Shown one piece after another: positions 1 through 26,231 of a DNA stretch of 64,000 nucleotides. How positions within the stretch are numbered: the stretch's first letter is position 1; each line of letters starts with the position of its first letter. The position numbers and the translations under genes were made by a program. The notes below the pieces were generated by a model that made no database searches, was not told the origin of the DNA, and saw only the letters and a list, made by a program, of their open reading frames with translations. This DNA comes from an uncultured Acidaminobacter sp. (GTDB lineage Bacteria > Bacillota > Clostridia > Peptostreptococcales > Acidaminobacteraceae), in the NCBI GenBank assembly GCA_963677505.2, contig CAXXWB010000045.1, forward strand, positions 6,870 to 70,869, read 5' to 3'.

Positions 1-27
1 TCTCATTATGCGACAGTTTAAACCCTT

Positions 28-55
28 TTCAATACCAACTGTCTTCGGTTATAAT
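28..55 (+). promoter_or_regulatory. Candidate sigma-70-type promoter of the TA cassette with flanking inverted repeat (possible operator)
   Basis: TTCAAT (28-33), 16-nt spacer, TATAAT (50-55). Inverted repeat GACAGTT (12-18) / AACTGTC (37-43) brackets the -35. The same arrangement occurs in copy 2 at +23223. Confidence 0.35.
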
Positions 56-76
56 AAATAGTAAGAGGTGATTTGT

Positions 77-250
77 ATGACACTTGTAGAGAAATTTGTA
101 AAAGAGTTTGAAGAATTATCAACTGACAGACAAGCGGAAGTAATAGATTTTATTGAGTTCCTCAAAGAGAAAGAGAACAAAAGAATTGAAGGATTAATGG
201 ATCTAATTATTGATGAAAATAAGGAAGCTTTATTGGAGCTTGCCAAATGA
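77..250 (+). CDS. Antitoxin of Phd/Doc-type module (small DUF2281-like protein)
   Basis: 57 aa from ATG 77, with AAGAGG RBS ending 8 nt upstream. Stop overlaps the doc start (ATGA at 247-250). The ..RQAEVIDFIEFLKEKE.. segment is typical of small antitoxins. Confidence 0.7.
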   Translation: MTLVEKFVKEFEELSTDRQAEVIDFIEFLKEKENKRIEGLMDLIIDENKEALLELAK

Positions 251-627
251 AAAATCTAGATATCAAGCAAGTTGTAGTATTTCATGAGAAAATCATCGAA
301 AAGACTGGTGGTAGCCACGGAGTCAAAAATTATGGCTTAGTAGAAAGCGCACTTCATAGAGGTGAGGCAAGTTTTTCAGGAGAGGATTTTTATCCAAGTT
401 TAGAATCAAAAATATCTGCTATAACCCATAGCTTAATTAGTAATCATGGATTTGTTGACGGGAATAAAAGAATTGGTGTATCCGTAATGCTGATACTTTT
501 GAAAATCAATTCACTTGAAATTCAATACAGCCAATCGGAATTAGTTAGTCTCGGTTTATCAGTAGCTTCAGGTGAAATGGATGAAAAACAAATTGAATCT
601 TGGATAATTGCAAGAAAAGTAAAGTAA
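247..627 (+). CDS. doc: Fic/Doc family toxin (death-on-curing)
   Basis: 126 aa. Doc-type Fic motif HGFVDGNKRIG. Translationally coupled to the upstream small ORF. Confidence 0.85.
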   Translation: MKNLDIKQVVVFHEKIIEKTGGSHGVKNYGLVESALHRGEASFSGEDFYPSLESKISAITHSLISNHGFVDGNKRIGVSVMLILLKINSLEIQYSQSELVSLGLSVASGEMDEKQIESWIIARKVK

Positions 628-648
628 GAGGAGAAATCCTCTTTTTTT
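627..648 (+). terminator. Rho-independent terminator after doc
   Basis: agagga-GAAA-tcctct hairpin followed by T7. Confidence 0.6.
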
Positions 649-701
649 ATAATAAACACATGGAATAAAATGCTTATAAAAACAATAAAAAGAAAACCGT
701 C

Positions 702-826
702 GTATAACTCCGAACTTACGTCATTGCCTATTGTCACGCCTTTTGCGGAGAACCGTTCAAAAGTCCCGCCAACTTGCCGCTGTGGCGTCAAGCACGTCAA
801 CGTCGTAAGTTCGTCTTTCGTTATAC
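702..826 (+). repeat. attC site 1 (125-nt class)
   Basis: R'' gtataac 702-708; arms cgaacttacg/cgtaagttcg; enlarged central hairpin ccttttgcggagaaccgttcaaaagt; R' gttatac 820-826. Confidence 0.9.
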
Positions 827-851
827 GCAATAATTCTGCACGTCAATTTGT

Positions 852-1105
852 AAAAGAAAAAAGGCAACCGCAAGAGCTGCCTTATTGAAGATATAAAATT
901 TGTTCAGCCCCGTAGTAGTGGCTAAGGTTGAATTAGTTGCTCTGTTTGGTTTCTTAAATTTAATCGAAACAAACGGTAATCGTATGTCAAAGCCATCGAA
1001 CCATTTAACAAGTGCTTTCATAGGCACCGCCCCCTTTTTCACCAATTTTACTACGGATGCTTTCGCATTTGGCTTACTCGCCTCGGGGAAACGAAGCTGA
1101 ACAAA
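852..1105 (-). ncRNA. Candidate structured RNA (unclassified) ending in an intrinsic terminator, inside cassette 2
   Basis: 10-bp closing helix 899-908/1096-1105; second helix 910-917/1049-1056; minus-strand hairpins ATGC-GAAA-GCAT (1057-1068) and GGC-GAGTAA-GCC (1071-1082); hairpin 944-953/966-974. On the minus strand a stem (861-866/878-883) is followed by a U-tract (852-860). The region looks more G+C-rich than its AT-rich flanks. Confidence 0.4.
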
Positions 1106-1229
1106 TTTAATATCTAAGAGTAACTATAGCATAATAAATTCAAAAATCACAATTTAAATAGAAATTAGGATTTTTGAATTTACATTCAATGTTAAAGTAC
1201 TAATTATAGTCTTAAGGGAGCTGTAAATA

Positions 1230-1601
1230 ATGGACAAACTGCGTTGGGCATATAAATATGTAGAACTGTTTCCAGAACATAAGGGACGTTTGGATGAGCA
1301 TATTAAAGATTATGGAGAGTTACTCGGGCATGTTTTCTTTGGTGATCTCATAAACGAACGACTTTATAATTTAATAAAATATGAAAGAGAGCTAGAAACT
1401 GTAGAAATATTATTTGATTTTATTAATGAAATGTTTAAGTATGGTGATGACGATTGCAAAAATATAATTGAAGTAACTATATTGGAATACTTAGGTGATG
1501 ATGACAAGGTACTAAAACGCAGTAAAAAATACTTAAGTCCTGAACTTATTGCTTTGTCGGATATAGTTGAGGAGTCACTGGGAAGGAAACATTTTGAGTA
1601 A
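1230..1601 (+). CDS. Hypothetical protein (123 aa, acidic, probably all-alpha)
   Basis: ORF with AAGGGAG RBS upstream, followed by an attC. Identical copy at 2161-2532. Confidence 0.7.
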   Translation: MDKLRWAYKYVELFPEHKGRLDEHIKDYGELLGHVFFGDLINERLYNLIKYERELETVEILFDFINEMFKYGDDDCKNIIEVTILEYLGDDDKVLKRSKKYLSPELIALSDIVEESLGRKHFE

Positions 1602-1639
1602 TAATATATGTGGAATTAATTAATGATACGAATTACTGC

Positions 1640-1758
1640 GTATAACTCCGAACTTACGCCATTGCCTATTGTCACGTCTTTTGCGGATGCAAAAGCCCCG
1701 CCAACTTGTCGCTGTGGCGCCAAGCACGTCAACGTCGTAAGTTCGTCTTTCGTTATAC
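1640..1758 (+). repeat. attC site 2 (119 nt)
   Basis: R'' gtataac, R' gttatac; conserved arms and central hairpin cttttgcg..gcaaaag. Confidence 0.9.
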
Positions 1759-1783
1759 GCAATAATTCTGCACGTCAATTTGT

Positions 1784-2036
1784 AAAAGAAAAAAGGCAAC
1801 CGCAAGAGCTGCCTTATTGAAGATATAAAATTTGTTCAGCCCCGTAGTAGTGGCTAAGGTTGAATTAGTTGCTCTGTTTGGTTTCTTAAATTTAATCGAA
1901 ACAAACGGTAATCGTATGTCAAAGCCATCGAACCATTTAACAAGTGCTTTCATAGGCACCGCCCCCTTTTTCACCAATTTTACTACGGATGCTTTCGCAT
2001 TTGGCTTACTCGCCTCGGGGAACGAAGCTGAACAAA
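1784..2036 (-). ncRNA. Candidate structured RNA, second copy (cassette 3)
   Basis: Duplicate of 852-1105. The only difference seen is a 1-nt indel (gggaaacg vs gggaacg) in an unpaired bulge. Confidence 0.4.
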
Positions 2037-2160
2037 TTTAATATCTAAGAGTAACTATAGCATAATAAATTCAAAAATCACAATTTAAATAGAAATTAGG
2101 ATTTTTGAATTTACATTCAATGTTAAAGTACTAATTATAGTCTTAAGGGAGCTGTAAATA

Positions 2161-2532
2161 ATGGACAAACTGCGTTGGGCATATAAATATGTAGAACTGT
2201 TTCCAGAACATAAGGGACGTTTGGATGAGCATATTAAAGATTATGGAGAGTTACTCGGGCATGTTTTCTTTGGTGATCTCATAAACGAACGACTTTATAA
2301 TTTAATAAAATATGAAAGAGAGCTAGAAACTGTAGAAATATTATTTGATTTTATTAATGAAATGTTTAAGTATGGTGATGACGATTGCAAAAATATAATT
2401 GAAGTAACTATATTGGAATACTTAGGTGATGATGACAAGGTACTAAAACGCAGTAAAAAATACTTAAGTCCTGAACTTATTGCTTTGTCGGATATAGTTG
2501 AGGAGTCACTGGGAAGGAAACATTTTGAGTAA
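2161..2532 (+). CDS. Hypothetical protein (123 aa), duplicate of 1230-1601
   Basis: Translation identical to 1230-1601. Confidence 0.7.
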   Translation: MDKLRWAYKYVELFPEHKGRLDEHIKDYGELLGHVFFGDLINERLYNLIKYERELETVEILFDFINEMFKYGDDDCKNIIEVTILEYLGDDDKVLKRSKKYLSPELIALSDIVEESLGRKHFE

Positions 2533-2570
2533 TAATATATGTGGAATTAATTAATGATACGAATTACTGC

Positions 2571-2689
2571 GTATAACTCCGAACTTACGCCATTGCCTAT
2601 TGTCACGTCTTTTGCGGATGCAAAAGCCCCGCCAACTTGTCGCTGTGGCGCCAAGCACGGCAACGTCGTCAGTTCGTCTTTCGTTATGT
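2571..2689 (+). repeat. attC site 3 (119 nt)
   Basis: R'' gtataac, R' gttatgt. Confidence 0.9.
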
Positions 2690-2749
2690 GAAATTGATTT
2701 AATATACATATTTTGAAGTATATTTAAAAACCAATTCGGAGGAAATCAA

Positions 2750-3571
2750 ATGCCAAATGGTAATATTTTGAGAACTTTTGATCAAAATTTGAAAAATAAG
2801 TTTAATGAGCGCTGTTTTATTTATGATAAATATAGACCTGAATATGTAGATGAGTTGTTTAAAGATATTTTTCAAATGAAAATGTTAAATCATAATAGTA
2901 AAGCATTAGAAATTGGAATAGGAACAGGACAAGCAACCAAACCTATTCTTGAAACGGGATGTAGTCTATTGGCGTTGGAAATTGGCGATCAGTTGGCGAG
3001 TTTTACTAAAGAGAAATTTCAGTCTTATGGTAACTTTACTGTTGAGAACAGTTCATTTGAAGATAGCAGCTTAGATGATAATAGCTATGATTTAGTATTT
3101 TCAGCATCTGCATTTCATTGGATTCCAGAAGAGTTTGGTTACTCTAAAGTTTTTAGAATTTTAAAACCCAATGGCGTGTTTGCCCGTTTTGCAATGCATC
3201 CTTATCCAGCAAAGGATAATATAGAGCTTTTTGAAGCAATACAACAATGTTATAAGAAATATTTACCAGAATCAAAACCAGGTCTTGAATATACAGAAGA
3301 AAAGGCTAGAGTAAGAGCAGAATTAAGCATTAAATATGGTTTTATTGACTCAAAATACTACGTTTACAATAGAATTAGGACTCATAATGCTCAAGAGTAT
3401 GTCAAGTTACTTGAAACTATGCACGACCATATAGCTTTGGATAGTAATTTGCGAGAAATGCTGTTTAATGACATTGAGGCTGCTATTGTAAAATATGGAA
3501 ATCAAATCAATGTCTATGATACAATTGACCTTCAGTTGGCTAGAAAAGCAAATATAGAAAATAATGATTAA
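2750..3571 (+). CDS. Class I SAM-dependent methyltransferase
   Basis: 273 aa. Motif I LEIGIGTGQAT; post-I and later motifs DLVFSASAFHWI and LKPNGVF. GGAGG RBS. Confidence 0.8.
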   Translation: MPNGNILRTFDQNLKNKFNERCFIYDKYRPEYVDELFKDIFQMKMLNHNSKALEIGIGTGQATKPILETGCSLLALEIGDQLASFTKEKFQSYGNFTVENSSFEDSSLDDNSYDLVFSASAFHWIPEEFGYSKVFRILKPNGVFARFAMHPYPAKDNIELFEAIQQCYKKYLPESKPGLEYTEEKARVRAELSIKYGFIDSKYYVYNRIRTHNAQEYVKLLETMHDHIALDSNLREMLFNDIEAAIVKYGNQINVYDTIDLQLARKANIENND

Positions 3572-3593
3572 TATATGATAAAAAATCAACTTC

Positions 3594-3712
3594 ACATAAC
3601 TCCGAACTTACGTCATTGCCTATTGTCATGTCTTTTGCGCATGCAAAAGCCCCGCCAACTTGCCGCTGTGGCGTCAAGCACGGCAACGACGTAAGTTCGT
3701 CTTTCGTTATAC
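3594..3712 (+). repeat. attC site 4 (119 nt)
   Basis: R'' acataac (complement of the preceding R' gttatgt), R' gttatac. Confidence 0.9.
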
Positions 3713-3797
3713 GAAATATTTCTCTACAATGTCGTAAAAATATAAATGTAATTTTATTAAAAATTGTAAAAGTACATCATCATGAGAGGGTAGCAGA

Positions 3798-4430: not shown

Positions 4431-4468
4431 AAACAAATTTTGGTAAATTATATTACAAGAAATACTTC

Positions 4469-4587
4469 GTATAACTCCGAACTTACGCCATTGCCTATTG
4501 TCATGTCTTTTGCGCATGCAAAAGCCCCGCCAACTTGCCGCTGAGGCGTCAAGCACGTCAACGTCGTAAGTTCGTCTTTCGTTATAT
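4469..4587 (+). repeat. attC site 5 (119 nt)
   Basis: R'' gtataac, R' gttatat. Confidence 0.9.
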
Positions 4588-4798
4588 GCAATAGCTCTAG
4601 CCTGAAATTGGTAATTACTATTAGAACTTATTCTAAGCAACAAAAGGCTCAAATCCATGCTGACAGGCTCTTGATAACTGTATTTGTTTTTAAAAAGTGT
4701 TATATAATATTTCTGTGTATCTTACAGACTAAAAATTACCTCACCAAAGTTTGGCTGAGAAACAGTTTTTCAATATAAGTGTTTAATTTATGTAAGAA

Positions 4799-4933: not shown

Positions 4934-4944
4934 AGAGCAACTGC

Positions 4945-5063
4945 ATATAACTCCGAACTTACGTCATTGCCTATTGTCATGTCTTTTGCGCATGCAAAAG
5001 CCCCGCCAACTTGTCGCTGCGGCGCCAAGCACGGCACCGACGTAAGTTCGTCTTTCGTTAGGT
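4945..5063 (+). repeat. attC site 6 (119 nt)
   Basis: R'' atataac, R' gttaggt. Confidence 0.9.
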
Positions 5064-5096
5064 GACATATTTTACACGTAAAATTGGAGTGTTTAG

Positions 5097-6115: not shown

Positions 6116-6234
6116 ACCTAACTCCGAACTTACGCCATTGCCTATTGTCATGTCTTTTGCGCATGCAAAAGCCCCGCCAACTTGCCGCTAGGGCGTCAAG
6201 CACGGCAACGTCGTAAGTTCGTCTTTCGTTATAC
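6116..6234 (+). repeat. attC site 7 (119 nt)
   Basis: R'' acctaac (complement of gttaggt), R' gttatac. Confidence 0.9.
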
Positions 6235-6913: not shown

Positions 6914-7032
6914 GTATAACTCCGAACTTACGCCATTGCCTATTGTCACGTCTTTTGCGCATGCAAAAGCCCCGCCAACTTGTCGCTGAAGCGCCAAGCA
7001 CGGCAACGTCGTAAGTTCGTCTTTCGTTATAC
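6914..7032 (+). repeat. attC site 8 (119 nt)
   Basis: R'' gtataac, R' gttatac. Confidence 0.9.
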
Positions 7033-7449: not shown

Positions 7450-7610
7450 GTCATAGATTAATACATGAAATAGAAATAATTAAAGTGGGATTGTGATAAT
7501 TATATTTTTGAGATACTGGCTGACCCGAGGTAGTTTTGCGAGAAAGTTATAACAAATAAGGTGATCTTTTATCTCAATACATTTTAAGGTCAAGTCCTTC
7601 GTATAACTCC

Positions 7611-7729
7611 GAACTTACGCCATTGCCTATTGTCACGTCTTTTGCGCATGCAAAAGCCCCGCCAACTTGCCGCTGAGGCGTCAAGCACGGCAACGTCGTA
7701 AGTTCGTCTTTCGTTAAGCGAAATTTTTT
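7611..7729 (+). repeat. attC site 9 (119 nt)
   Basis: R'' gtataac, R' gttaagc. Confidence 0.9.
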
Positions 7730-7788: not shown

Positions 7789-8313
7789 ATGATTACTATA
7801 GAACAGGTATCAATTGAAAATGCTAATGAAATACTTGCATTTGAGATTGAAAATAGATGTTTTTTCGAAGCAACTTTACCATCGAGAGGCAATGATTATT
7901 ACATTTTAGATAATTTCATGAATATCATCAATGAAATTTGTGAAGAACAAAAAAATGGTTCATTATATATGAATATCATAAGAAATGAGTTTAATGAAGT
8001 CGTTGGCAGAATCAATCTTTTCCTAATAAAGCATGAAAAATATAATCGAGCATTTGAGTTAGGTTATCGTATTGCTGAAAAACATCAGGGAAAAGGGTAC
8101 GCAACAAGCTCTGTAAAAGCATTAATCAAAATAGCATTTAAAGAATATGAAATAGAATGTATTCAAGCATTAACTTCTCCTAAAAATGCAGCTTCTCAAA
8201 TAATACTTATAAAGAATGGATTCTCATTTGTTACCAAAATACCAAATGATGTAGAGGTGAATGGGATTTTTGAGGACAGCATTGTATTTGAAATAGAGAA
8301 TCAGATCAAATAG
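7789..8313 (+). CDS. GNAT family N-acetyltransferase (RimJ/RimL-like)
   Basis: 174 aa. Motif A region YRIAEKHQGKGYATSSVKALI; C-terminal ..KNGFSF. Confidence 0.8.
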   Translation: MITIEQVSIENANEILAFEIENRCFFEATLPSRGNDYYILDNFMNIINEICEEQKNGSLYMNIIRNEFNEVVGRINLFLIKHEKYNRAFELGYRIAEKHQGKGYATSSVKALIKIAFKEYEIECIQALTSPKNAASQIILIKNGFSFVTKIPNDVEVNGIFEDSIVFEIENQIK

Positions 8314-8382: not shown

Positions 8383-8507
8383 GCTTAACTCCGAACTTAC
8401 GTCATTGCCTATTGTCACGCCTTTTGCGAAAAATCGTGCAAAAGCCCCGCCAACTTGTCGCTGTGGCGCCAAGCACGGCAACGACGTAAGTTCGTCTTTC
8501 GTTATAT
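8383..8507 (+). repeat. attC site 10 (125-nt class)
   Basis: R'' gcttaac (complement of gttaagc), R' gttatat; enlarged loop gcgaaaaatcgtgc. Confidence 0.9.
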
Positions 8508-9050: not shown

Positions 9051-9169
9051 ATATAACTCCGAACTTACGCCATTGCCTATTGTCATGTCTTTTGCGCATG
9101 CAAAAGCCCCGCCAACTTGCCGCTGAAGCGTCAAGCACGGCAACGTCGTAAGTTCGTCTTTCGTTATAC
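9051..9169 (+). repeat. attC site 11 (119 nt)
   Basis: R'' atataac, R' gttatac. Confidence 0.9.
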
Positions 9170-9274: not shown

Positions 9275-9847
9275 ATGAGAGATATCGATTATAGTACATA
9301 TTTTTGGAAAGATGATGTAATTAGACTTAGAGCAATGAAGCCAAATGATTGGGAGAATTATTACTTAAATAGATTTGATACACCCGCAAGAAGAATTTTG
9401 AACTATGAGGTGGAGTTACCGCCAACGGTTGAAGATGCTCAATCTTTTACTGAGAAATTTGAGAATTTTAAAGAAGGTACAGGTCGCCTAATGTTTGTAG
9501 CAGAGACTTTAGACGGTAATAATGTAGCAGCTCTAAATCTAAATAGTATAGATATGAAAAATGGTACGTTTAGTATAGGTATGCAAGTAGATCGAGAAAA
9601 TCGTGGAAAAGGGTATGGAACTAGGGCAATGAGAATAGTTCTGCGATATGCCTTTATGGAGTTAAGACTAAATAAGTTCAATGTTTCTGTAATGCAAGGA
9701 AATATAGGCTCATACACAATGATGAAAAAGTTAGGTTGTAAGGAAGAAGGCGTCAGAAGACAAGTAGTTTATACTGAAGGTCAATACTGGGATGAAACTA
9801 TGTTTGGTCTGACCCGAGAAGAGTTTATAGAAACAGAAAAGAAATGA
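9275..9847 (+). CDS. GNAT family N-acetyltransferase (RimJ/RimL-like)
   Basis: 190 aa. QVDRENRGKGYGTRAMRIVLRYAF; KLGCKEEG; AAGGAGG RBS. Confidence 0.8.
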   Translation: MRDIDYSTYFWKDDVIRLRAMKPNDWENYYLNRFDTPARRILNYEVELPPTVEDAQSFTEKFENFKEGTGRLMFVAETLDGNNVAALNLNSIDMKNGTFSIGMQVDRENRGKGYGTRAMRIVLRYAFMELRLNKFNVSVMQGNIGSYTMMKKLGCKEEGVRRQVVYTEGQYWDETMFGLTREEFIETEKK

Positions 9848-9894: not shown

Positions 9895-10013
9895 GTATAA
9901 CTCCGAACTTACGCCATTGCCTATTGTCACGCCTTTTGCGCATGCAAAAGCCCCGCCAACTTGTCGCTGCGGCGCCAAGCACGGCAACGACGTAAGTTCG
10001 TCTTTCGTTATGT
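9895..10013 (+). repeat. attC site 12 (119 nt)
   Basis: R'' gtataac, R' gttatgt. Confidence 0.9.
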
Positions 10014-10842: not shown

Positions 10843-10961
10843 ACATAACTCCGAACTTACGTCATTGCCTATTGTCATGTCTTTTGCGCATGCAAAAGCC
10901 CCGCCAACTTGCCGCTATGGCGTCAAGCACGGCAACGACGTAAGTTCGTCTTTCGTTATGC
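10843..10961 (+). repeat. attC site 13 (119 nt)
   Basis: R'' acataac, R' gttatgc. Confidence 0.9.
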
Positions 10962-11141: not shown

Positions 11142-11531
11142 ATGGAGAGCTTAACTATGACCGATTTGAAAATATCAGAAATGATGAAAATGCAAATGGA
11201 TCTATGGGAACAAAATAAAGAAAAATGGTCACCTATGGAACCATCACATGGTAAATCAAGTTTGCTATGGATGATTGAAGAAATTGGTGAAGTAATATCT
11301 ATTATAAAAAAGAAAAAAGAACATGAGCTTTTAGATAATGAAGAAGTAAGAAATAAGCTCGTAGAAGAGTTCGCAGATGTTTATATGTATCTAACAGATA
11401 CGTTGCTTCGCTATAAAATTTCTCCAGAAGAGATTAGTTCGGCTTATATGAAAAAGCACATGGTTAATATGAATAGAAATTATCAAAAAGAATATTCAAA
11501 TTACATAACAGTTGAAAAAGAAGCAGAGTAG
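11142..11531 (+). CDS. MazG-like nucleotide pyrophosphohydrolase domain protein
   Basis: 129 aa. EEIGEV..x..EEFADVYMYL metal-binding EExxE/EExxD pattern. Confidence 0.65.
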   Translation: MESLTMTDLKISEMMKMQMDLWEQNKEKWSPMEPSHGKSSLLWMIEEIGEVISIIKKKKEHELLDNEEVRNKLVEEFADVYMYLTDTLLRYKISPEEISSAYMKKHMVNMNRNYQKEYSNYITVEKEAE

Positions 11532-11552: not shown

Positions 11553-11677
11553 GCATAACTCCGAACTTATGCCATTGCCTATTGTCATGCCTTTTGCTGA
11601 AGAGCTTGCAAAAGTCCCGCCAACTTGCCGCTGAGGCGTCAAGCACGGCAACGTCGTAAGTTCGTCTTTCGTTATAT
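11553..11677 (+). repeat. attC site 14 (125-nt class)
   Basis: R'' gcataac, R' gttatat; enlarged loop gctgaagagcttgc. Confidence 0.9.
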
Positions 11678-11824: not shown

Positions 11825-12250
11825 ATGACAAATTATATTATTGAAGAAAGCACAAAAGACGAATATGGGTTGGTTGATGATGGGATAGTTGAATATAATA
11901 TATCCAAAGTTCCTTTTACGCAAGAACCATCTTATATTTCAATAAATAGAGTAATAAAAGACTTAGATGGAGAGGTTTTAGCAGGAATAAATAGTCTATT
12001 ATACTGTTGGAATTGCTTATATGTAGATGTTTTATGGGTTAAAGAGCAGTTTAGAAAAGAAGGGTACGGCTCTATACTTCTAAGTGAAGTAGAAAAAATT
12101 GCGAAAGAAAAAGGGTGCAATCTCATTCACTTAGATACTTTTGATTTTCAAGCAAAAGATTTCTACCGTAAACATGGATATGAGGTCTTTGGTATATTAG
12201 AAGATTGCCCAATGGATCATAATCGTTATTATATGAAAAAGAAAATATAG
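11825..12250 (+). CDS. GNAT family N-acetyltransferase
   Basis: 141 aa. VKEQFRKEGYGSILLSEVEKIAKEKG; KHGYEVFG. Confidence 0.75.
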   Translation: MTNYIIEESTKDEYGLVDDGIVEYNISKVPFTQEPSYISINRVIKDLDGEVLAGINSLLYCWNCLYVDVLWVKEQFRKEGYGSILLSEVEKIAKEKGCNLIHLDTFDFQAKDFYRKHGYEVFGILEDCPMDHNRYYMKKKI

Positions 12251-12326: not shown

Positions 12327-12758
12327 ATGAATCAAGAAATCGTTCATATTGCATTGGTTGTAAAAGACTATGATGAAGCAATTGATTTTTATACTAAAAA
12401 GTTAAACTTTGAATTGATTGAAGACACATATCAACCCGAACAAGATAAAAGATGGGTTGTAGTAGCGCCGACTGGATCTAGAGGAACAACTATCTTGCTT
12501 GCCAAGGCATCAAATCAAGAACAAGAAAAGTTTATCGGGAATCAATCGGGTGGTAGAGTCTTTCTATTTTTAAACACAGATGATTTTTGGAGAGACTATA
12601 ATTCGATGATCAAGAAGGGAATTATTTTTGTAAGAGAACCAAAAACCCAGGACTATGGTATTGTGGCAGTCTTTGAAGACTTGTATGGGAACAGGTGGGA
12701 TTTATTGCAGCTGAATAAAAACCATAAAATCTATGAAAGAATAAGTGAGAGAGCATAA
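12327..12758 (+). CDS. VOC (glyoxalase/bleomycin-resistance/dioxygenase fold) family protein
   Basis: 143 aa. HIALVVKDYDEAIDFYTKKLNFEL; C-terminal FEDLYGNRWDLLQ. Shares one cassette with the preceding GNAT; no attC lies between them. Confidence 0.7.
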   Translation: MNQEIVHIALVVKDYDEAIDFYTKKLNFELIEDTYQPEQDKRWVVVAPTGSRGTTILLAKASNQEQEKFIGNQSGGRVFLFLNTDDFWRDYNSMIKKGIIFVREPKTQDYGIVAVFEDLYGNRWDLLQLNKNHKIYERISERA

Positions 12759-12768: not shown

Positions 12769-12887
12769 ATATAACTCCGAACTTACGTCATTGCCTATTG
12801 TCATGTCTTTTGCGTATGCAAAAGCCCCGCCAACTTGTCGCTGAGGCGCCAAGCACGGCAACGACGTAAGTTCGTCTTTCGTTAAGC
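12769..12887 (+). repeat. attC site 15 (119 nt)
   Basis: R'' atataac, R' gttaagc. Confidence 0.9.
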
Positions 12888-14039: not shown

Positions 14040-14158
14040 GCTTAACTCCGAACTTACGCCATTGCCTATTGTCACGTCTTTTGCGCATGCAAAAGCCCCG
14101 CCAACTTGCCGCTGCGGCGTCAAGCACGGCAACGTCGTCAGTTCGTCTTTCGTTATGT
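14040..14158 (+). repeat. attC site 16 (119 nt)
   Basis: R'' gcttaac, R' gttatgt. Confidence 0.9.
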
Positions 14159-14277
14159 GACATTTTAGCAGCGACACATGGATTTGTCAAAAAAAGTGCA
14201 GTCGGTAAACTCACTAAATTGATAAAGGGGTATAACCCCATTGAATTACCTTGAGTTCATTTAGACCACTTTTCATT

Positions 14278-15150
14278 TTATGCTGCTGTACTACTTGCTA
14301 AACTTTTCATACGATAGACAAATGGCGGAAGCCCTTGTGGATTTGATGTATAGACCCGCTGTTTATTGTAATAAATCATAATGTAACGGAAGATCACTGA
14401 CTTGACCTGGTGCATCGGGAAATGCGCTGTTCCTATTCTGTAGAGTTTCTCTTTTTTCAGAGTGGCAAAGAAGCTCTCCATCCTTGCATTATCATAGCAT
14501 CGACCTGTGCCACTCATACTTTGTATGGCTCCATATTGAGCCAAGGTCTTTCGATAATCAGAGCTGGTAAACTGACTTCCTCGGTCTGAGTGAAGAATCA
14601 TGCCCTTGGCATTCTGTGACTTGCAAGCGTTTTCAAAGGCTTGAATACACAGTTCTTTACGCATGTTGTTGTCCATGGATAGACCAACAATCTCACCATT
14701 ATAGCAGTCAAGGATTGGTGCAACATAGAGTTTACCATCAGAACACTGCACTTCAGTGATGTCTGTTAGCCACTTCTGATTTGGTGCAGTTGCTGCAAAG
14801 TCCCTTTGGATGATATTTTCACTCTTTTGCGCTGCAGCGTCTTCACGAGTGATACCATTTGGGTGACGTTTACGCTTTTTAAGCATCTGATATTTGCGCA
14901 TAGTCCGATAAATGGTACTATAGCTCACCTGTTGGTCCAACTGAAGTAGCCTTAAATAAATGCGTCTAGCGCCGTAATTATCATTATCGGGATGTTGACT
15001 TAGAACCGACTTTATTTGACCCAGAAGAAGGCTGTCTCGTTTAATCTTGTCTGTATGTTTAAGGCTTCTAAAATAACCTGACTCACTGACTTTTAGCGCT
15101 ATACAAAGTTCGTGAATGGAGTATTTTAAGCACCTTTGACTGATAAACAT
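14278..15150 (-). CDS. IS3-family transposase OrfB (DDE integrase-like catalytic domain)
   Basis: 290 aa from the first ATG. Motifs ..NQKWLTDITEV.. and HSDRGSQFTS. Confidence 0.85.
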   Translation of the reverse strand: MFISQRCLKYSIHELCIALKVSESGYFRSLKHTDKIKRDSLLLGQIKSVLSQHPDNDNYGARRIYLRLLQLDQQVSYSTIYRTMRKYQMLKKRKRHPNGITREDAAAQKSENIIQRDFAATAPNQKWLTDITEVQCSDGKLYVAPILDCYNGEIVGLSMDNNMRKELCIQAFENACKSQNAKGMILHSDRGSQFTSSDYRKTLAQYGAIQSMSGTGRCYDNARMESFFATLKKEKLYRIGTAHFPMHQVKSVIFRYIMIYYNKQRVYTSNPQGLPPFVYRMKSLASSTAA

Positions 15151-15167
15151 GTATAAAAGCTGTGGTT

Positions 15168-15455
15168 TTACTTCTTCCGGTCTTTTGCGAAAAAACCCAA
15201 TGCATCCTTTAGAATTTCATTGGCCTTGCGAAGTTCAGCATTTTCCTTTTCAAGCTCCATCTCTCGACGGCTTCTAGGATCAATGCGTAGGTTACCACTG
15301 CCAACATAGGCGAGTTCGCCGTAATGGGTACGTTTTTGACGCCAATTGGACAAGGTATGATACGGAACACCAAGTTGTTTTGCAGCTGTAGCCAGTCCAA
15401 TTTCATCAGATAGTTTTACGGCTTCAATTTTAAATGCGGTATCATAAGTTTTCAT
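15168..15455 (-). CDS. IS3-family transposase OrfA (HTH)
   Basis: 95 aa. ..LGVPYHTLSNWRQK.. followed by a leucine-zipper-like ELEKENAELRKANEILKDA. Confidence 0.85.
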   Translation of the reverse strand: MKTYDTAFKIEAVKLSDEIGLATAAKQLGVPYHTLSNWRQKRTHYGELAYVGSGNLRIDPRSRREMELEKENAELRKANEILKDALGFFAKDRKK

Positions 15456-15717
15456 TTCGAGTCCTCACTTTCATAGATATGGTTATAGTCATCATATCGC
15501 ATTTAGTGAGTTTGGTGACTGCACTTTTATGATATCATTCCACATTGTTATTACTTTATTATGGCATCTAAATTTATACATAAAGGTAAGTTCTAATAAC
15601 TGGAATCGACATATTACTTTTATTAGTATGTAAGAACTGAAAAAATAGGAGTAATTATATTGAGTAATTCTGGCAACCACACAAACAATATTTAGTATAA
15701 AAACACGAGGATAAAAT

Positions 15718-16206: not shown

Positions 16207-16325
16207 GTATAACTCCGAACTTACGTCATTGCCTATTGTCATGTCTTTTGCGCATGCAAAAGCCCCGCCAACTTGTCGCTGAGGCGCCAAGCACGGCAAC
16301 GACGTAAGTTCGTCTTTCGTTAGAC
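16207..16325 (+). repeat. attC site 17 (119 nt)
   Basis: R'' gtataac, R' gttagac. Confidence 0.9.
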
Positions 16326-17199: not shown

Positions 17200-17324
17200 G
17201 TCTAACTCCGAACTTACGCCATTGCCTATTGTCACGCCTTTTGCGGTGTAGCTTGCAAAAGTCCCGCCAACTTGTCGCTGCGGCGCCAAGCACGGCAACG
17301 TCGTCAGTTCGTCTTTCGTTAAGC
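17200..17324 (+). repeat. attC site 18 (125-nt class)
   Basis: R'' gtctaac (complement of gttagac), R' gttaagc. Confidence 0.9.
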
Positions 17325-18645: not shown

Positions 18646-19368
18646 AAACCCCCGGTTCTACCGGGGGTTCCAAAGAGCTTTAGCTTTGCCCAAAAAGAAT
18701 ACCTCCTTTTGTTAGAATAATGGTGGTTCGCCAACCGCTATTTTCTAATAAAAGGAGGATCCGAAATTGGATAAGAACAGTTTAGCACACACAACTTGGA
18801 ATTGCAAATATCACGTAGTGTTTGCACCAAAGTATAGACGACAAGCGATTTATGGAAAAATTAAGACAGATGTAGGAAAAATACTGAGGAAACTGTGTGA
18901 ACAAAAGGGCGTAAAAATTCTAGAAGCGACGGCTTGTTCTGACCATGTTCATATGGTTATCGAAATACCGCCAAAGCATAGTGTTTCGAGTATTATGGGA
19001 GATCTAAAAGGAAAAAGTTCTTTGATGATATTTGATAAGCACGCAAACTTGAAATATAAGTACGGAAATCGTCATTTTTGGTGTAGAGGTTACTATGTAG
19101 ATACAGTAGGAAGAAATGAAAAAGCAATAAGAGAATATGTGAAAAATCAACTCCAAGAGGATATAGCTAATGATCAAATAAGTATCATGGAATATGTTGA
19201 CCCGTTTACGGGTGAGCAAGCAGCGAAAAAGGGCAAAAAATAAAAGCTGCTTTAGCAGCAGCCAGTAAACGCAAGCGTTTGGCGAACCAAATCAATGAGC
19301 CTTAAGGCTCACGCGGGCAACATGCCCTTATAGGGCGGAACAAACTACCCGCTAAGCGGGTAGTTTTG
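18646..19368 (+). mobile_element. IS200/IS605-family element (tnpA only); ends approximate
   Basis: Y1 transposase gene flanked by subterminal hairpins aaacccccggttctaccgggggtt (left) and aaactacccgctaagcgggtagtttt (right). Confidence 0.65.
18767..19243 (+). CDS. tnpA: IS200/IS605 family Y1 (HUH) transposase TnpA
   Basis: 158 aa. HUH motif SDHVHMVIE; catalytic-Tyr region FWCRGYYVDTVG. TTG start after AGGAGG. Confidence 0.9.
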   Translation: MDKNSLAHTTWNCKYHVVFAPKYRRQAIYGKIKTDVGKILRKLCEQKGVKILEATACSDHVHMVIEIPPKHSVSSIMGDLKGKSSLMIFDKHANLKYKYGNRHFWCRGYYVDTVGRNEKAIREYVKNQLQEDIANDQISIMEYVDPFTGEQAAKKGKK

Positions 19369-19776: not shown

Positions 19777-19895
19777 GCTTAACTCCGAACTTACGCCATT
19801 GCCTATTGTCACGTCTTTTGCGCATGCAAAAGCCCCGCCAACTTGCCGCTGCGGCGTCAAGCACGGCAATGACGTAAGTTCGTCTTTCGTTATAC
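19777..19895 (+). repeat. attC site 19 (119 nt)
   Basis: R'' gcttaac, R' gttatac. Confidence 0.9.
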
Positions 19896-20654: not shown

Positions 20655-20670
20655 TGGCTCAAAGTCCTTC

Positions 20671-20789
20671 GTATAACTCCGAACTTACGTCATTGCCTAT
20701 TGTCATGTCTTTTGCGCATGCAAAAGCCCCGCCAACTTGGCGTTGCGACGCCAAGCACGGCAACGACGTAAGTTCGTCTTTCGTTATGC
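20671..20789 (+). repeat. attC site 20 (119 nt)
   Basis: R'' gtataac, R' gttatgc. Confidence 0.9.
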
Positions 20790-20820
20790 GAAATCATTTA
20801 TATTTCAAGGGGGAATTTAA

Positions 20821-21824: not shown

Positions 21825-21843
21825 GATAAATTTAAATGACTTC

Positions 21844-21962
21844 GCATAACTCCGAACTTACGTCATTGCCTATTGTCATGTCTTTTGCGCATGCAAAAGC
21901 CCCGCCAACTTGCCGCTGCGGCGTCAAGCACGGCAACGACGTAAGTTCGTCTTTCGTTATGT
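21844..21962 (+). repeat. attC site 21 (119 nt)
   Basis: R'' gcataac, R' gttatgt. Confidence 0.9.
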
Positions 21963-22130
21963 GAAAGCCTCCAAGAAATATGGTTGTAAGATTATTTATC
22001 AAATATTTAATTAGAAGTAGTTAAGACAACATTACTATCTAATTCTTTAATAAATATTTATATAGCTCATATTGTAAACGCTATTTAAAATTATTGTTGA
22101 AGATTAGGTCTTAAAATCACTGGAGGAAAA

Positions 22131-22877
22131 ATGATAAAATATACCAAAATCGGTGCGCTTTTAATTACTGCTATCCTAATAATCGGTGCAGCATTAAATA
22201 TGAGCCAGAAACTATATGGAACAAATATATTAGATAAAATTTATGTATTATCGAACGAAAAAGTTGTAAAGAATGGTATTAAAGAAAGCAATTATAAAGA
22301 ACAAGAGAATATTGATAAAAAAAGAAGTTTAGCTATGTCGACATTAAAGAAGGTAGTTAAAAGTGAATGTGATTTTTACAATGTAGATGATAAAGTTGAC
22401 GTGAGATTGAATAAATTTGATTTTGTAAATGGTTCTAAATTGGATAAAGCACTTGCAATAAAAAATTTTTCTGTAATAGATTTAGATGGAGATGAAATAC
22501 CAGAAGTTGTACTTTTTACTGATGAAATTCAATATGAAATTTTACAATATGATGATAATAAAGTATATGGATATAATATATTTTTCAGAGAACTTATGAA
22601 TATTAAAATTGATGGAACATTTAGTTTTTCTGGTGGTGCCTCTGACAGTGGGTTTGGTAGAATGATATTTTCAATAAATAATCGCAGTATTCAAAACGAA
22701 GTGTACTCAGAATCTCATAATATAGGTGATAAAAATGTAATTTCTTATTTTAAGAATCAATTAGAAATAACGGAAAGTGATTATTTTAAGTTTATTGATG
22801 AGCAGAACAAAAAAGAAGACATTAAGTGGTATGATTTTACAGTTGAGAATATTGAGAAAGTCTTCTCAATGGAATAA
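22131..22877 (+). CDS. Secreted or membrane-anchored hypothetical protein (248 aa)
   Basis: N-terminal hydrophobic helix IGALLITAILIIGAAL; GGAGG RBS. Confidence 0.7.
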   Translation: MIKYTKIGALLITAILIIGAALNMSQKLYGTNILDKIYVLSNEKVVKNGIKESNYKEQENIDKKRSLAMSTLKKVVKSECDFYNVDDKVDVRLNKFDFVNGSKLDKALAIKNFSVIDLDGDEIPEVVLFTDEIQYEILQYDDNKVYGYNIFFRELMNIKIDGTFSFSGGASDSGFGRMIFSINNRSIQNEVYSESHNIGDKNVISYFKNQLEITESDYFKFIDEQNKKEDIKWYDFTVENIEKVFSME

Positions 22878-22941
22878 TAAAAAGATCGATTTATAATTAG
22901 ATATAATAGAAAATTATTGTTGAGTTTGATTTACGGCCTTC

Positions 22942-23066
22942 ACATAACTCCGAACTTACGCCATTGCCTATTGTCATGCCTTTTGCGGTGGTACTTGCAA
23001 AAGTCCCGCCAACTTGCCGCTAGGGCGTCAAGCACGGCAACGTCGTCAGTTCGTCTTTCGTTATAC
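22942..23066 (+). repeat. attC site 22 (125-nt class)
   Basis: R'' acataac, R' gttatac. Confidence 0.9.
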
Positions 23067-23213
23067 GACAGTTTTCTTTGCAAAATTTTGTTATTTGAAT
23101 TACATTTTTTTGATTTAAAGAAAAATCAAAATCTGATTAAACATGATATATACTCGTTGCAATTGCGGCAAACATAACAATAATTTCCATGCATTGGGTA
23201 TAAGTAATTCTTA

Positions 23214-23236
23214 CACACACGGCTCTCAATTTACGA
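23214..23236 (+). repeat. Possible decayed attC 3' remnant upstream of TA copy 2
   Basis: cacacggctctcaatttacgac resembles caagcacggc..tctttcgttatacgac with an internal deletion. The window start (tctcattatgcgac) shows the same remnant before TA copy 1. Confidence 0.25.
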
Positions 23237-23299
23237 CAGTTTAAACCCTTTTCAATACCAACTGTCATCGGTTATAATAAATAGTAAGAGGTGATTTGT

Positions 23300-23473
23300 A
23301 TGACACTTGTAGAGAAATTTGTAAAAGAGTTTGAAGAATTATCAACTGACAGACAAGCGGAAGTAATAGATTTTATTGAGTTCCTCAAAGAGAAAGAGAA
23401 CAAAAGAATTGAAGGATTAATGGATCTAATTATTGATGAAAATAAGGAAGCTTTATTGGAGCTTGCCAAATGA
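23300..23473 (+). CDS. Antitoxin of Phd/Doc-type module, copy 2
   Basis: Translation identical to 77-250. Confidence 0.7.
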   Translation: MTLVEKFVKEFEELSTDRQAEVIDFIEFLKEKENKRIEGLMDLIIDENKEALLELAK

Positions 23474-23850
23474 AAAATCTAGATATCAAGCAAGTTGTAG
23501 TATTTCATGAGAAAATCATCGAAAAGACTGGTGGTAGCCACGGAGTCAAAAATTATGGCTTAGTAGAAAGCGCACTTCATAGAGGTGAGGCAAGTTTTTC
23601 AGGAGAGGATTTTTATCCAAGTTTAGAATCAAAAATATCTGCTATAACCCATAGCTTAATTAGTAATCATGGATTTGTTGACGGGAATAAAAGAATTGGT
23701 GTATCCGTAATGCTGATGCTTTTGAAAATCAATTCACTTGAAATTCAATACAGCCAAATAGAATTGGTCAATTTAGGATTATCAGTGGCTTCAGGCGAAA
23801 TGGATGAAAAGCAAATTGAATCATGGATAAATGCAAGAAAAGTAAAGTAA
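23470..23850 (+). CDS. doc: Fic/Doc family toxin, copy 2
   Basis: 126 aa with HGFVDGNKRIG. It has 4 aa differences from copy 1, all in the C-terminal third. Confidence 0.85.
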   Translation: MKNLDIKQVVVFHEKIIEKTGGSHGVKNYGLVESALHRGEASFSGEDFYPSLESKISAITHSLISNHGFVDGNKRIGVSVMLMLLKINSLEIQYSQIELVNLGLSVASGEMDEKQIESWINARKVK

Positions 23851-23924
23851 GGGGAGAAATCCTCTTTTTTTATAATAAATATATGGAATATAATGCTTAT
23901 TAAAACAATAAAAAGAAAACCATC

Positions 23925-24043
23925 GTATAACTCCGAACTTACGCCATTGCCTATTGTCACGTCTTTTGCGCATGCAAAAGCCCCGCCAACTTGCCGCTGG
24001 GGCGTCAAGCACGGCAACGACGTAAGTTCGTCTTTCGTTATAC
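23925..24043 (+). repeat. attC site 23 (119 nt)
   Basis: R'' gtataac, R' gttatac. Confidence 0.9.
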
Positions 24044-24162
24044 GAAAGTTCCCAGATTGTGATTGGAATAGTCAAGAAAAGTGCAGTCTATAAACTCACT
24101 AAATTAATCAAGGTGGATAATCCTATTGAAATTGCTTGAGTTTATTTAATCGACAACAATAG

Positions 24163-25020
24163 TTATGCAGCTTGGGTCGTTACTAAACTTTTCATACGAT
24201 AGGCGTACGGTGACAAACCTTGTGGGTTTGATGTATAGATTCGCTGTTTGTTGTAATAAATCATGATGTAGCGAAAAATTACTGACTTGATCTGGTGCAT
24301 TGGGAAATGTTCTGTTCCTATTCGGTAGAGTTTCTCTTTTTTCAAAGTAGCAAAGAAGCTCTCCATCCTTGCATTATCATAGCATCTACCAGTGCCACTC
24401 ATACTTTGTGTGGCACCATACTGAGCCAAAGCATTTCGAAAGTCATAACTTGTATACTGACTTCCTCGATCTGAATGGAGAATCATAGCTTTTGCTCCTT
24501 GAGATTTGCATGCGTTCTCAAAGGCTTGAATACACAGTTCTTTACGCATGTTGTTATCCATTGATAGACCTACAATCTCGCCATTGAAACAGTCGAGAAT
24601 TGGTGCTATATAAAGTTTGCCATCGGAACACTGTACCTCAGTGATATCGGTCAACCACTTCTGATTCGGCGCTGTTGCCGTAAAGTCTCGCTGGATTATA
24701 TTTTCGCTCTTCTGTGCTGCAGCATCTTCACGGGTAATGCCATTAGGATGACGTTTCCGTTTTTAAGCATCTGATGTTTCTTCATGATTCGGTAAACTGT
24801 ACTGTAGCTTACGTTCTGATCCATCTGTAAAAGTCCTAAATGAACCCGCTGAACGCCATAGTTATCGTTGTCAGGATATTGACTTAGAATAGCTTTGATA
24901 TGACCCAGAAGAAGGTCTTCACGTTTAAGTCGGTCTGTACTAAAATAACCTGACTCGCTGACCCTAAGAGCTATACAAAGGTCATGAATGCTGTATTTTG
25001 AACGCCTTAGACTGATGAAA
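24163..25020 (-). pseudogene. IS3-family transposase OrfB, frameshifted
   Basis: The C-terminal 163 aa are intact. A 1-nt loss in the A-run (atgcttaaaaacgg vs atgcttaaaaagcg in copy 1) breaks the frame, and a 12-13-nt deletion lies near 24940. Confidence 0.75.
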
Positions 25021-25039
25021 ACGTATAAACGCTGGGGTT

Positions 25040-25327
25040 TTACTTCTTCCGGTCTTTTGCGAAAAAACCTAATGCATCCTTTAGAATTTCATTGGCCTTG
25101 CGGAGCTCAGCATTTTCTTTTTCAAGTTCAAGTTCGCGACGACTTCTAGGGTCTATACGCAAGTTTCCACTGCCAACATAGGCGAGCTCGCCGTAATGGG
25201 TACGTTTTTGGCGCCAGTTGGACAAGGTGTGATAGGGAACACCAAGTTGCTTTGCAGCTGTAGCAAGTCCAATTTCATCAGAAAGTTTGACTGCTTCAAT
25301 TTTAAAGGCGGTATCATAAGTTTTCAT
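25040..25327 (-). CDS. IS3-family transposase OrfA
   Basis: 95 aa, 1 aa different from copy 1. Confidence 0.85.
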   Translation of the reverse strand: MKTYDTAFKIEAVKLSDEIGLATAAKQLGVPYHTLSNWRQKRTHYGELAYVGSGNLRIDPRSRRELELEKENAELRKANEILKDALGFFAKDRKK

Positions 25328-25529
25328 GTCGAATCCTCACTTTCATACATATGGGTTATATTTATCATATCTTATTTAGTGAGTTTTGCGACTGCACTTT
25401 TATGATAGCATTCCAACTTTGGACTGTATATTTACTTTTAAAGATTAGAAGAAGATCAAATTCTATGAGCCATTATGAATGTGATTAATAATACATAAAT
25501 CATGCCTAGATTAAGAAAGTAGGACTAAT

Positions 25530-26025
25530 ATGAAATTAAAAAAACTAGACCAATGCAGTGAAGCTTCATACATATATTACTGTGATGCTTTTAAAGAGGC
25601 TCATGAGATGCCTTTTTCTAGCAACTTAATGAACCTAGATTATAAAACATGGATTAATGAAAGTAAAAAGTTAGAAGATAGGATGCAACTGCCAAGTGGT
25701 TATGTTCCTTCTCATACATTTTTCTTAGTGGACGAGAGTAAACACTTGCTGGGAAATGTAAGCATTAGAACAGAATTAAATGACTATTTAAGTAAGTACG
25801 GCGGTAATATTGGATATGTGGTTTCTCCTGAAGAGAGAGGCAGAAAATATGGGAAGAAACTACTAGAACTAGCACTTGAAGAAGCAAAAAAAACTTGGGC
25901 TAAAAGAAGTACTACTAACATGTGATAAATCGAATATAGCATCTTCGAAAATAATCACGGGAAATGGCGGAACATTAGATTCAGAAGATATGGTTGAAGG
26001 TGTGGAGATTGAACGCTATTTGATT
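25530..26025 (+). pseudogene. GNAT family acetyltransferase with a frameshift in an A8 run
   Basis: ..GNIGYVVSPEERGRKYGKKLLELALEEAKK then the frame changes at gcaaaaaaaactt. The shifted frame continues LGLKEVLLTCDKSNIASSKIITGNGG..IERYLIKL. Paralogous to 28601-29133. Confidence 0.6.
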
Positions 26026-26106
26026 AAGTTATAGAACCGAGAGGCTTAGTTGAAGGTAAAACTAGAAGAAATATAGATTTTAGAATGAGTGGTATCGAAT
26101 ACCGTC

Positions 26107-26231
26107 GTATAACTCCGAACTTACGCCATTGCCTATTGTCACGCCTTTTGCGGAGAACCGTGCAAAAGCCCCGCCAACTTGCCGCTGAAGCGTCAAGCAC
26201 GGCAACGTGGTCAGTTCGTCTTTCGTTATGC
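26107..26231 (+). repeat. attC site 24 (125-nt class), last site of the array
   Basis: R'' gtataac, R' gttatgc. No further copies of the repeat occur downstream. Confidence 0.9.

Follow-up and report, generated by a model that had tools for sequence, protein, structure and literature searches.

A probable integron-type gene-cassette array in the chromosome of a Clostridia-class bacterium

Introduction

Can an integron-type cassette system reside in the chromosome of a Clostridia-class bacterium? The question is raised by a 64-kb stretch of contig CAXXWB010000045.1 (assembly GCA_963677505.2), here called the window, in which the first 26 kb consist of short genes separated by copies of one imperfect palindrome. 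The original prediction for this stretch, made from its letters, read the palindromes as attC sites and the genes between them as the cassettes of a large sedentary integron array in a Firmicutes-like chromosome. The analysis reported here indicates that a Clostridia-class bacterium probably carries an integron-type cassette array in its chromosome, and that positions 1-26231 form the distal part of this array.

Integrons are one of the principal means of acquiring and rearranging accessory genes in bacteria. The IntegronFinder survey of 2016 gives 0 complete integrons in Firmicutes, and IntegronFinder 2.0 (2022) gives one, in Limnochorda pilosa (class Limnochordia), plus 'a few CALIN' (clusters of attC sites lacking integron-integrases). 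This near-absence is called puzzling in the IntegronFinder surveys, which agree with the prediction, where such arrays were held to be essentially absent from the phylum, that they are very rare there. A full-text literature search on integron/attC in Clostridia, Bacillota, Fusibacter and Peptostreptococc- returned no description of native arrays.

Results

Repeat sites in the array

Sites were located by repeat search and anchored pattern matching. The window holds 24 copies, all on the + strand within 702-26231, and anchored pattern matching over the whole window found 0 on the - strand. No full, half or degenerate copy was present at 26,300-64,000 on either strand with up to 5-7 mismatches allowed. 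Eighteen of the copies are 119 nt long: sites 2 (1640-1758), 3 (2571-2689), 4 (3594-3712), 5 (4469-4587), 6 (4945-5063), 7 (6116-6234), 8 (6914-7032), 9 (7601-7719), 11 (9051-9169), 12 (9895-10013), 13 (10843-10961), 15 (12769-12887), 16 (14040-14158), 17 (16207-16325), 19 (19777-19895), 20 (20671-20789), 21 (21844-21962) and 23 (23925-24043). The other six are 125 nt long: sites 1 (702-826), 10 (8383-8507), 14 (11553-11677), 18 (17200-17324), 22 (22942-23066) and 24 (26107-26231), the last of which marks the distal end of the array. The difference between the two size classes is confined to the loop of one internal hairpin. Pairwise identity among the 119-nt sites is 89-98% (mean 93%), and long blocks are invariant.

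Each copy has the form xxxTAAC ... GTTAxxx, with the TAAC start core and the GTTA end core invariant in 24/24 sites. The outer three bases of these R boxes are not always YYY/RRR, as in GTATAAC. Pattern matching thus reproduced the set of 24 similar palindromes that had been predicted, with their sizes, ends and single orientation, and every checkable detail was correct. Other classes of repeat were considered for the same DNA. A CRISPR (clustered regularly interspaced short palindromic repeats) reading was rejected on repeats of 119/125 nt instead of 23-50 nt and on intervals of 351-2446 nt that contain open reading frames (ORFs). Tandem-repeat and RNA-gene readings were ruled out by the size and content of the repeats and by the absence of any Rfam family matching them.

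Complementarity between neighboring sites

The terminal 7-mer of site n is the exact reverse complement of the initial 7-mer of site n+1 at 22/23 junctions. The sole exception is the junction from site 16 to site 17, where the right flank of site 16 does not match the next site and the cassette holds an element of the insertion sequence (IS) family IS3. The reach of the rule was measured by comparing the 16 nt right of each GTTA with the reverse complement of the 16 nt left of every TAAC. In neighboring pairs positions 1-13 past GTTA match at 74-100%, position 7 excepted. Over 13 nt and 23 junctions there were 251 matches out of 299, compared to 145.4 ± 8.7 with permuted partners, and 0/100,000 permutations reached the observed value. 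Exact 3-mers at the junctions numbered 22 against 5.5 expected. Out of 16 flank positions, neighbors match at 12, non-neighbors at 7.0 and the two flanks of the same site at 6.5, which is the background. The weakest extended match is between sites 23 and 24, whose cassette carries the second IS3 copy. The predicted complementarity at 22 of 23 junctions was therefore confirmed, both example pairs given for it were correct, and the 13-nt extension makes the rule stronger than claimed.

Flank position 7 behaves differently. The right flank has A there and the left flank C without exception, both in the window (23/23 junctions) and in a second array (15/15 junctions; L001, described below). The resulting C·A mismatch in the top strand is a G·T wobble in the bottom strand, meaning that the two bases can pair in the bottom strand alone. 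Inverted repeats of 17 nt, with a different sequence for each cassette, enclose the ORFs, and the conserved repeat body lies between such units.

The proposed mechanism starts with a site-specific recombinase that would act on the lower strand in its folded form, cutting and exchanging it at a point within the invariant R-stem GTTA. DNA to the right of the exchange point would then belong to the next cassette, and a cassette excised as a circle would carry a site that regains a 17-bp R stem specific to that cassette. Flank complementarity would be neighbor-specific because an exchange point inside GTTA places the DNA to its right in the next cassette. As the last 15 nt of the sites are invariant across all copies, the exact crossover point is placed by inference. 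The junction pattern is the one expected from exchange inside GTTA and is not the pattern of a transposing palindrome with terminal repeats of its own.

Folding of the sites

Single-stranded DNA folding distinguishes the two strands of the repeat. At 23/23 sites tested the more stable fold is that of the bottom strand, with a mean of -34.8 kcal/mol compared to -23.7 kcal/mol for the top strand and a gain of 7-13 kcal/mol per site (mean about 11). Site 8, which was folded in detail, has a bottom-strand energy of -35.9 kcal/mol (z = -8.3 vs shuffles) and a top-strand energy of -23.2 kcal/mol. From the outside in, the bottom-strand fold consists of a 7-bp R stem, an asymmetric internal loop (6 nt 5', 2 nt 3'), an L stem, and a three-way junction with two small hairpins that gives a Y-shaped tip. 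The L stem begins with 10 bp and extends to 18 bp, broken by no more than a single 1x1 mismatch; in the bottom strand of site 10 the 18 bp are uninterrupted. Read on the top strand, the spacer has 3 unpaired nt (TCC) on the R''-L'' side compared to 7 (GTCTTTC) on the L'-R' side. The L'' and L' arms are equal in size, and there is no bulged (extrahelical) L-box base. In place of bulged bases, the source of strand asymmetry in these sites may be the four additional spacer bases together with the G·T pairs of the bottom strand.

The sites of circular cassettes were rebuilt in silico, with the left flank of each site joined to the flank found just after the preceding site. The rebuilt bottom strands fold at a mean of -44.9 kcal/mol compared to -37.8 kcal/mol in the array context.

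Hairpin 2 of the sites (e.g. 6978-6997) has a side-swapping mismatch beside its CGC/GCG stem in the window and in L001. The pair is C..T in 23 sites, T..C in 12 and G..C in 2, and it is never C..C or T..T. Two sites have a compensatory CGT/ACG change in the stem. The conserved non-canonical pair may be a recognition feature.

Comparison with class 1 attC sites

A reference set of 13 attC sites of class 1 integrons was read from plasmids, with cassettes that include aadA1, aadA2, aadB, blaVIM-2, arr-3, aac(6')-Ib, dfrA5, dfrA27, cmlA1, estX and qacL. The R'' xxxTAAC and R' GTTAxxx boxes of the window sites are found in 11/13 of these sites. The neighbor rule holds for them as well; the aadB site ends in GTTAGAC and the next site starts with GTCTAAC. 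The two groups differ in the interior. The class 1 sites of this set are 60-114 nt long with spacers of 5 and 5-6 nt, and their L'' arm exceeds L' by one base, which leaves a bulged base, whereas the window sites are 119/125 nt long with spacers of 3 and 7 nt and equal L arms. Bulged bases are the means of strand and orientation choice in classical attC sites.

The original prediction had proposed a check with an attC covariance model, and a proxy for such a model was built from the 13 class 1 sites with the R and L pairs set by hand. It recovers every class 1 site in six plasmid loci, untrained ones included, at 29-76 bits, with the untrained sites at 29-68 bits. The same model scores 0/24 window repeats at E ≤ 10 with filters off, so that, as far as the proxy goes, this check went against the prediction. 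The IntegronFinder attC model was built from 96 sites and the proxy is narrower, so that its failure reports divergence from the mobile-integron type and does not imply that IntegronFinder would miss the sites. The predicted match to canonical attC architecture holds for the R box and the bottom-strand bias; it does not hold for the L stem, which has no bulged base, for the asymmetric 3/7 spacer, or for the score of the proxy model.

Cassette organization and content

The array part of the window (1-26231, + strand) contains 23 complete cassettes and one cut by the window start, and the array runs on upstream of position 1. Its G+C content is 29-39% compared to 36-40% in the core genes downstream. 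Cassettes measure 476-2571 bp (median 948 bp) and hold one or a few + strand ORFs each, and the distance from the stop of a + strand ORF to the following site is 10-279 nt. Pfam families on the cassette ORFs are led by four GNAT acetyltransferases (7789-8313 on the + strand, 9275-9847, 11825-12250 and 25530-25925). Single ORFs, all on the + strand, encode a SAM (S-adenosylmethionine)-dependent methyltransferase (2750-3571), a MazG-like nucleotide pyrophosphohydrolase (11142-11531) and a protein of glyoxalase/bleomycin-resistance fold (12327-12758). A two-gene cassette at 68-627 on the + strand encodes a DUF2281-like small protein and a Fic-domain protein, a toxin-antitoxin-like pair. DUF7674, DUF6338, DUF5677 and a GIY-YIG nuclease domain were also found, about 10 ORFs had no family, and most of the cassette proteins are of no known function. 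The prediction of integron-style cassettes rich in GNAT and toxin-antitoxin-like genes is supported by this content together with the junction rule, the single orientation, the spacing between ORFs and sites, and the median size. A promoter/terminator scan of the array gave counts no different from shuffles and is uninformative on expression. A frameshift is present in the GNAT cassette at 25530-26031.

Copies of whole cassettes occur within the window. The Fic pair is found again at 23291-23850 with DNA 99% identical to 68-627, and the whole Fic cassettes span 1-826 and 23224-24043. The DUF7674 cassette is present on the + strand in two tandem copies over 1230-2532 (ORFs 1230-1601 and 2161-2532; DNA 99-100% identical). 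Within 827-2689 the tandem duplication takes in the whole cassette and its site, since 758-1057 equals 1690-1989 (99%) and 1086-1385 equals 2017-2316 (100%).

A second array was found in L001 (ENA ERZ21878172), a 17-kb contig from another metagenome. The array takes up the whole contig and has 16 sites of 119/125 nt in 16 kb, and the junction rule holds at 14/15 junctions. Two cassettes are common to L001 and the window, the Fic cassette at 99% and one of 135 aa at 97.7% identity, and their neighbors differ on both sides. The Fic cassette is thereby known from three contexts at 95-99% identity. An exact-protein search with the window cassettes gave matches in L001 only. The shared and duplicated cassettes behave as mobile units.

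Insertion sequences inside the array

The cassettes contain three insertion sequences, of which two are diverged members of the IS3 family and one is of IS200 type. The first IS3-family element occupies 14179-15542 on the - strand, with ORFs at 15168-15455 and 14278-15150 and inverted repeats TGGAtT...AAAAGTGCAGTC. The second copy (24064-25415, - strand) is about 73-89% identical to the first by segment and is frameshifted. Measured from the GTTA of the preceding site, the element starts at 23 nt (site 16), 23 nt (site 23) and 25 nt in a groundwater-metagenome contig (L014, element at about 194-1550). The three flanking contexts are different and the elements are always antiparallel to the cassettes, which suggests that IS3 has a target preference for DNA just past the folded site. 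No target-site duplication was detected at either IS3 copy in the window.

The two cassettes that carry IS3 elements are the two with broken end complementarity, and an IS-associated deletion is the likely cause of the loss. An exchange of right flanks between the two IS3 copies was also considered and rejected, as the window contains no matching partner flank.

The IS200-type element (18647-19243, + strand) lies inside cassette 18, a 2.5-kb multi-ORF cassette that also holds the GIY-YIG domain protein. An Rfam match to the small RNA (sRNA) family STnc490 (63 bits) sits directly upstream of the Y1 (IS200-like) transposase ORF at 18767-19243. This position identifies the 'sRNA' match as the 5' leader of the IS200-type element.

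Search for the recombinase

The orientation of the cassettes places the integrase end of the array upstream of position 1. The window begins inside the array and its source contig is 84,271 nt long, which leaves up to 20 kb outside the window. Pfam/NCBIfam scans covered the larger ORFs of 26-64 kb, and Pfam was run on the large ORFs of the loci with solitary sites. Neither these scans nor tblastn detected a tyrosine recombinase in the window or in 16 related loci. The tblastn query was IntI1, 100% identical to plasmid intI1 genes, and its best hit against the window and the 16 loci (L001 plus 15) had E = 6.6. All related assemblies end at or near the array (L001, L012, L014, L015, L016). The alternative posed in the original prediction, a complete integron or a CALIN, therefore stands, with no recombinase in the window, a window that starts inside the array, and related assemblies that break there. 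The enzyme would be an IntI-type tyrosine recombinase, presumably encoded upstream of position 1. That a recombinase was recently active in the lineage is supported by the high homogeneity of the sites, by cassette-specific stems that are still intact, and by cassettes that remain 99% identical although their contexts differ.

Crassaminicella profunda CP082326.1 (L028 5881-10000) has a tyrosine recombinase fragment of 71 aa, from the C-terminal end. Its best solved structure is the Vibrio cholerae integron integrase IntI4 (2a3v, 53.8 bits, aligned to the SPL tail), with XerD at 49. Past the fragment there are small + strand ORFs, and two of the spacers share another palindromic repeat containing TTCCACGAAAAnCATGTGGAA. 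The proxy attC model gave no score on the Crassaminicella repeats. This locus may represent the remains of an integron with a different family of sites, in a further Clostridia genome.

Host and chromosomal locus

The predicted low-GC Firmicutes host was borne out by the core genes downstream of the array (uppP, prs, pepP, plsY, tRNA-Sec, a photolyase, comEC-holA, an msbA-like transporter and znuABC). For HolA there is a 93% identical counterpart on a Logan contig and an 86% identical one on contig CAYOLV010000002.1 of a metagenome-assembled genome (MAG) labeled 'uncultured Peptostreptococcaceae bacterium'. Gene order is the same as in both over 18 kb, and the family name used here is taken from the label of this nearest MAG. 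Nucleotide identity of the window is 80% to the Logan contig and 72-74% to CAYOLV010000002.1, which identifies the window as a different species of the same group. The same repeat is also found in Fusibacter sp. 3D3.

The first conserved core gene past the array is uppP (bacA; 30564-31418, + strand), which serves as the locus anchor in relatives. Between the last site and uppP lies a zone without attC sites (26232-30560, + strand) that contains a Cu_amine_oxidN1 gene, a GNAT remnant (28735-29130) and small ORFs. The zone is partly homologous to the equivalent zone of the groundwater relative, which keeps attC remnants. That relative's contig (L014, 414,866 nt) starts with a full site and continues with the IS3 element, accessory genes free of attC sites, a decayed remnant and uppP. 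Only the L stem is kept in the decayed remnant of L012/L014. In CAYOLV010000002.1 (L004) one full site and three half-sites lie upstream of uppP. The half-sites, at 3024, 4318 and 5910, consist of xxxTAAC and the left L arm and end within a few bases past CCATTG, with the next gene directly after. A further relative (L030) has accessory genes upstream of uppP and no site. The three relatives with sites or remnants at uppP are at 72-80% nucleotide identity, or at 73% amino acid identity of a neighboring core gene. On these comparisons the array is a sedentary feature of this clade that grows or decays in different species.

In the window uppP is split over four frames. The Cu_amine_oxidN1 gene (26360-27762, 469 aa) is split over three frames. 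All uppP pieces and the two N-terminal Cu_amine_oxidN1 pieces are 81-91% identical to the relative at the amino acid level, and the C-terminal Cu_amine_oxidN1 piece is 49% identical. The frameshifts in uppP, the Cu_amine_oxidN1 gene and the GNAT cassette are either indel errors of the assembly or the marks of very recent pseudogenes.

Other genes of the core region were recorded as well. The tRNA-Sec gene is at 38688-38780 on the - strand (70 bits). A 1431-aa ORF at 41931-46226 on the + strand encodes a fused acyl-CoA dehydratase activase of BcrAD_BadFG/DUF2229 type. A 662-aa N6-adenine methyltransferase at 49604-51592 is Eco57I-like and weakly PglX-like, and it is conserved at the same place in relatives.

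Site copies in other genomes

A site-pattern scan of representative genomes detected solitary copies only, in four stretches, and two metagenome contigs gave the same result. The carriers are Fusibacter sp. 3D3 (Clostridia; L002 1628-1752, once), the 'Bacteroidales bacterium' MAG OY782180.1 (L003 5155-5273), L005, L006 and L007. The Peptostreptococcaceae MAG has copies at two places, one per orientation. The near-identical site in a MAG labeled Bacteroidales reflects either cassette transfer across phyla or a mislabeled or contaminated MAG. The site pattern was absent from the viral contigs, plasmids and phages scanned.

Discussion

The junction rule, the bottom-strand bias and the exchange of whole cassettes between contexts carry the interpretation of 1-26231 as a chromosomal integron-type array. 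Several results weigh against it. The L stem has no bulged base; the spacer has 3 vs 7 unpaired nt where the classical spacer has 5 vs 5-6; the proxy covariance model scores none of the repeats; no tyrosine recombinase was detected in the window or the 16 related loci; and integrons are almost absent from this phylum in surveys. An IntI-type integrase is somewhat more likely than not to be present in the genome, and what is left of the probability is split between an orphaned array and a different recombinase.

A narrower version of the integron-type interpretation, which is less likely than not, is that the array belongs to a chromosomal integron lineage native to Clostridia (Peptostreptococcales-like, from groundwater/sediment), with structurally distinct sites that classical attC models miss. 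The distinct class would be defined by the absence of a bulged L base, by the asymmetry of the spacer, and by an R stem of 17 bp that differs from cassette to cassette and is closed by a G·T pair formed only in the bottom strand. If such a lineage exists, the near-absence of integrons from Firmicutes would be partly a detection artefact, and the partner recombinase would be a divergent IntI or a different enzyme that chooses strand and orientation in another way.

The strongest rival is an orphaned array, or CALIN, in which an integron integrase built the array in the past and its gene has since been lost, nearby or entirely, leaving a decaying fossil. The integrase was not found in the window or in related loci, relatives show progressive site loss at the same locus, and the surveys give a few CALIN and one complete integron in Firmicutes. 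IS elements have been proposed to give rise to CALIN, and this array contains three insertion sequences and two cassettes with broken end complementarity. A fossil is nevertheless unlikely. Mean site identity of 93% with 13-nt stems intact at 21-22/23 junctions indicates recent or continuing selection on the folded site, 99%-identical cassettes are found in three different contexts, and one cassette is present as a perfect tandem duplication. The integrase end of the array also falls outside the window.

A less probable rival keeps the integron-like platform and replaces the enzyme, with a very divergent tyrosine recombinase or some other enzyme acting on single-stranded hairpins. It would account for the site geometry, namely the deviant spacer, the missing bulged L base and the 17-bp cassette-specific R stem; it fits the blank result of the proxy model and a phylum in which IntI is nearly unknown. 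This rival is improbable in view of an R box that has the classical sequence, down to the AAC/GTT triplet at which IntI cleaves, and of a bottom-strand bias and cassette boundaries exactly as in IntI systems. No alternative enzyme is conserved beside the arrays either, and the transposases of IS200 and IS3 belong to ordinary insertions that only some cassettes have.

It is very improbable that the sites are palindromes of the repetitive extragenic palindromic (REP)/bacterial interspersed mosaic element (BIME), enterobacterial repetitive intergenic consensus (ERIC) or miniature inverted-repeat transposable element (MITE) kind, spread by transposition or acting as RNA-level regulators or terminators unrelated to cassette exchange, because the ERIC-like size and palindromic nature and the solitary copies in Fusibacter sp. 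3D3, the Bacteroidales MAG and the Peptostreptococcaceae MAG (two, one per orientation) are set against 24/24 sites in one orientation and one cluster with 0 in the other 38 kb, flanks that match those of the neighbor (12/16) and are at chance within a site (6.5/16) where self-complementary ends are expected, whole cassettes that change context, no Rfam match, and terminator-like sites that are not enriched.

With the integron-type array retained as the preferred interpretation, a large, homogeneous and apparently recently active array at one locus in several Clostridia species would mean that a cassette system can establish in this class. The sites keep the classical cleavage box but have other features in place of those held to direct the choice of strand and orientation, which makes them a natural test case for what an integrase needs in its substrate. 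If standard models miss this class of site, there is a bias in what surveys say about where integrons occur and which genes make up the cassette pool.

Comparison with known systems

REP/BIME, ERIC and MITE elements are likewise imperfect palindromes of about 120 nt between genes, but they are dispersed in both orientations and have self-complementary ends, whereas the ends of the window sites are complementary to the neighboring site across a gene. A CALIN, defined in IntegronFinder as at least two attC sites with no integrase nearby, fits what is seen within the 64-kb window, whose start lies inside the array; 24 or more near-identical sites would make it an unusually large one. The Limnochorda pilosa HC45 integron, compared by taxonomy only, is in the same phylum by NCBI taxonomy and in a different class (Limnochordia vs Clostridia).

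Among the closest known systems are the sedentary chromosomal integrons of Vibrio, such as that of V. cholerae with its VCR (Vibrio cholerae repeat) sites, whose properties are established knowledge. Both are large arrays at a fixed locus, with homogeneous sites of about 120 nt and cassettes of about 1 kb in one orientation. The Vibrio superintegron also shares the many orphan genes, the acetyltransferases, the toxin-antitoxin-like pairs and the cassette boundaries inside the GTT of the R' box. It differs in its host, a gammaproteobacterium compared to a Clostridia-class member of the Bacillota, and in that no IntI or attI is seen in the window. Unlike VCR sites, the window sites lack a bulged L base, have spacers of 3 and 7 nt, end in a Y-shaped tip and form an R stem of 17 bp that is specific to each cassette, and they are unscored by the proxy attC model. 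The array itself is of integron type; what is new here is the host class, the conserved chromosomal locus and the structurally deviant family of sites.

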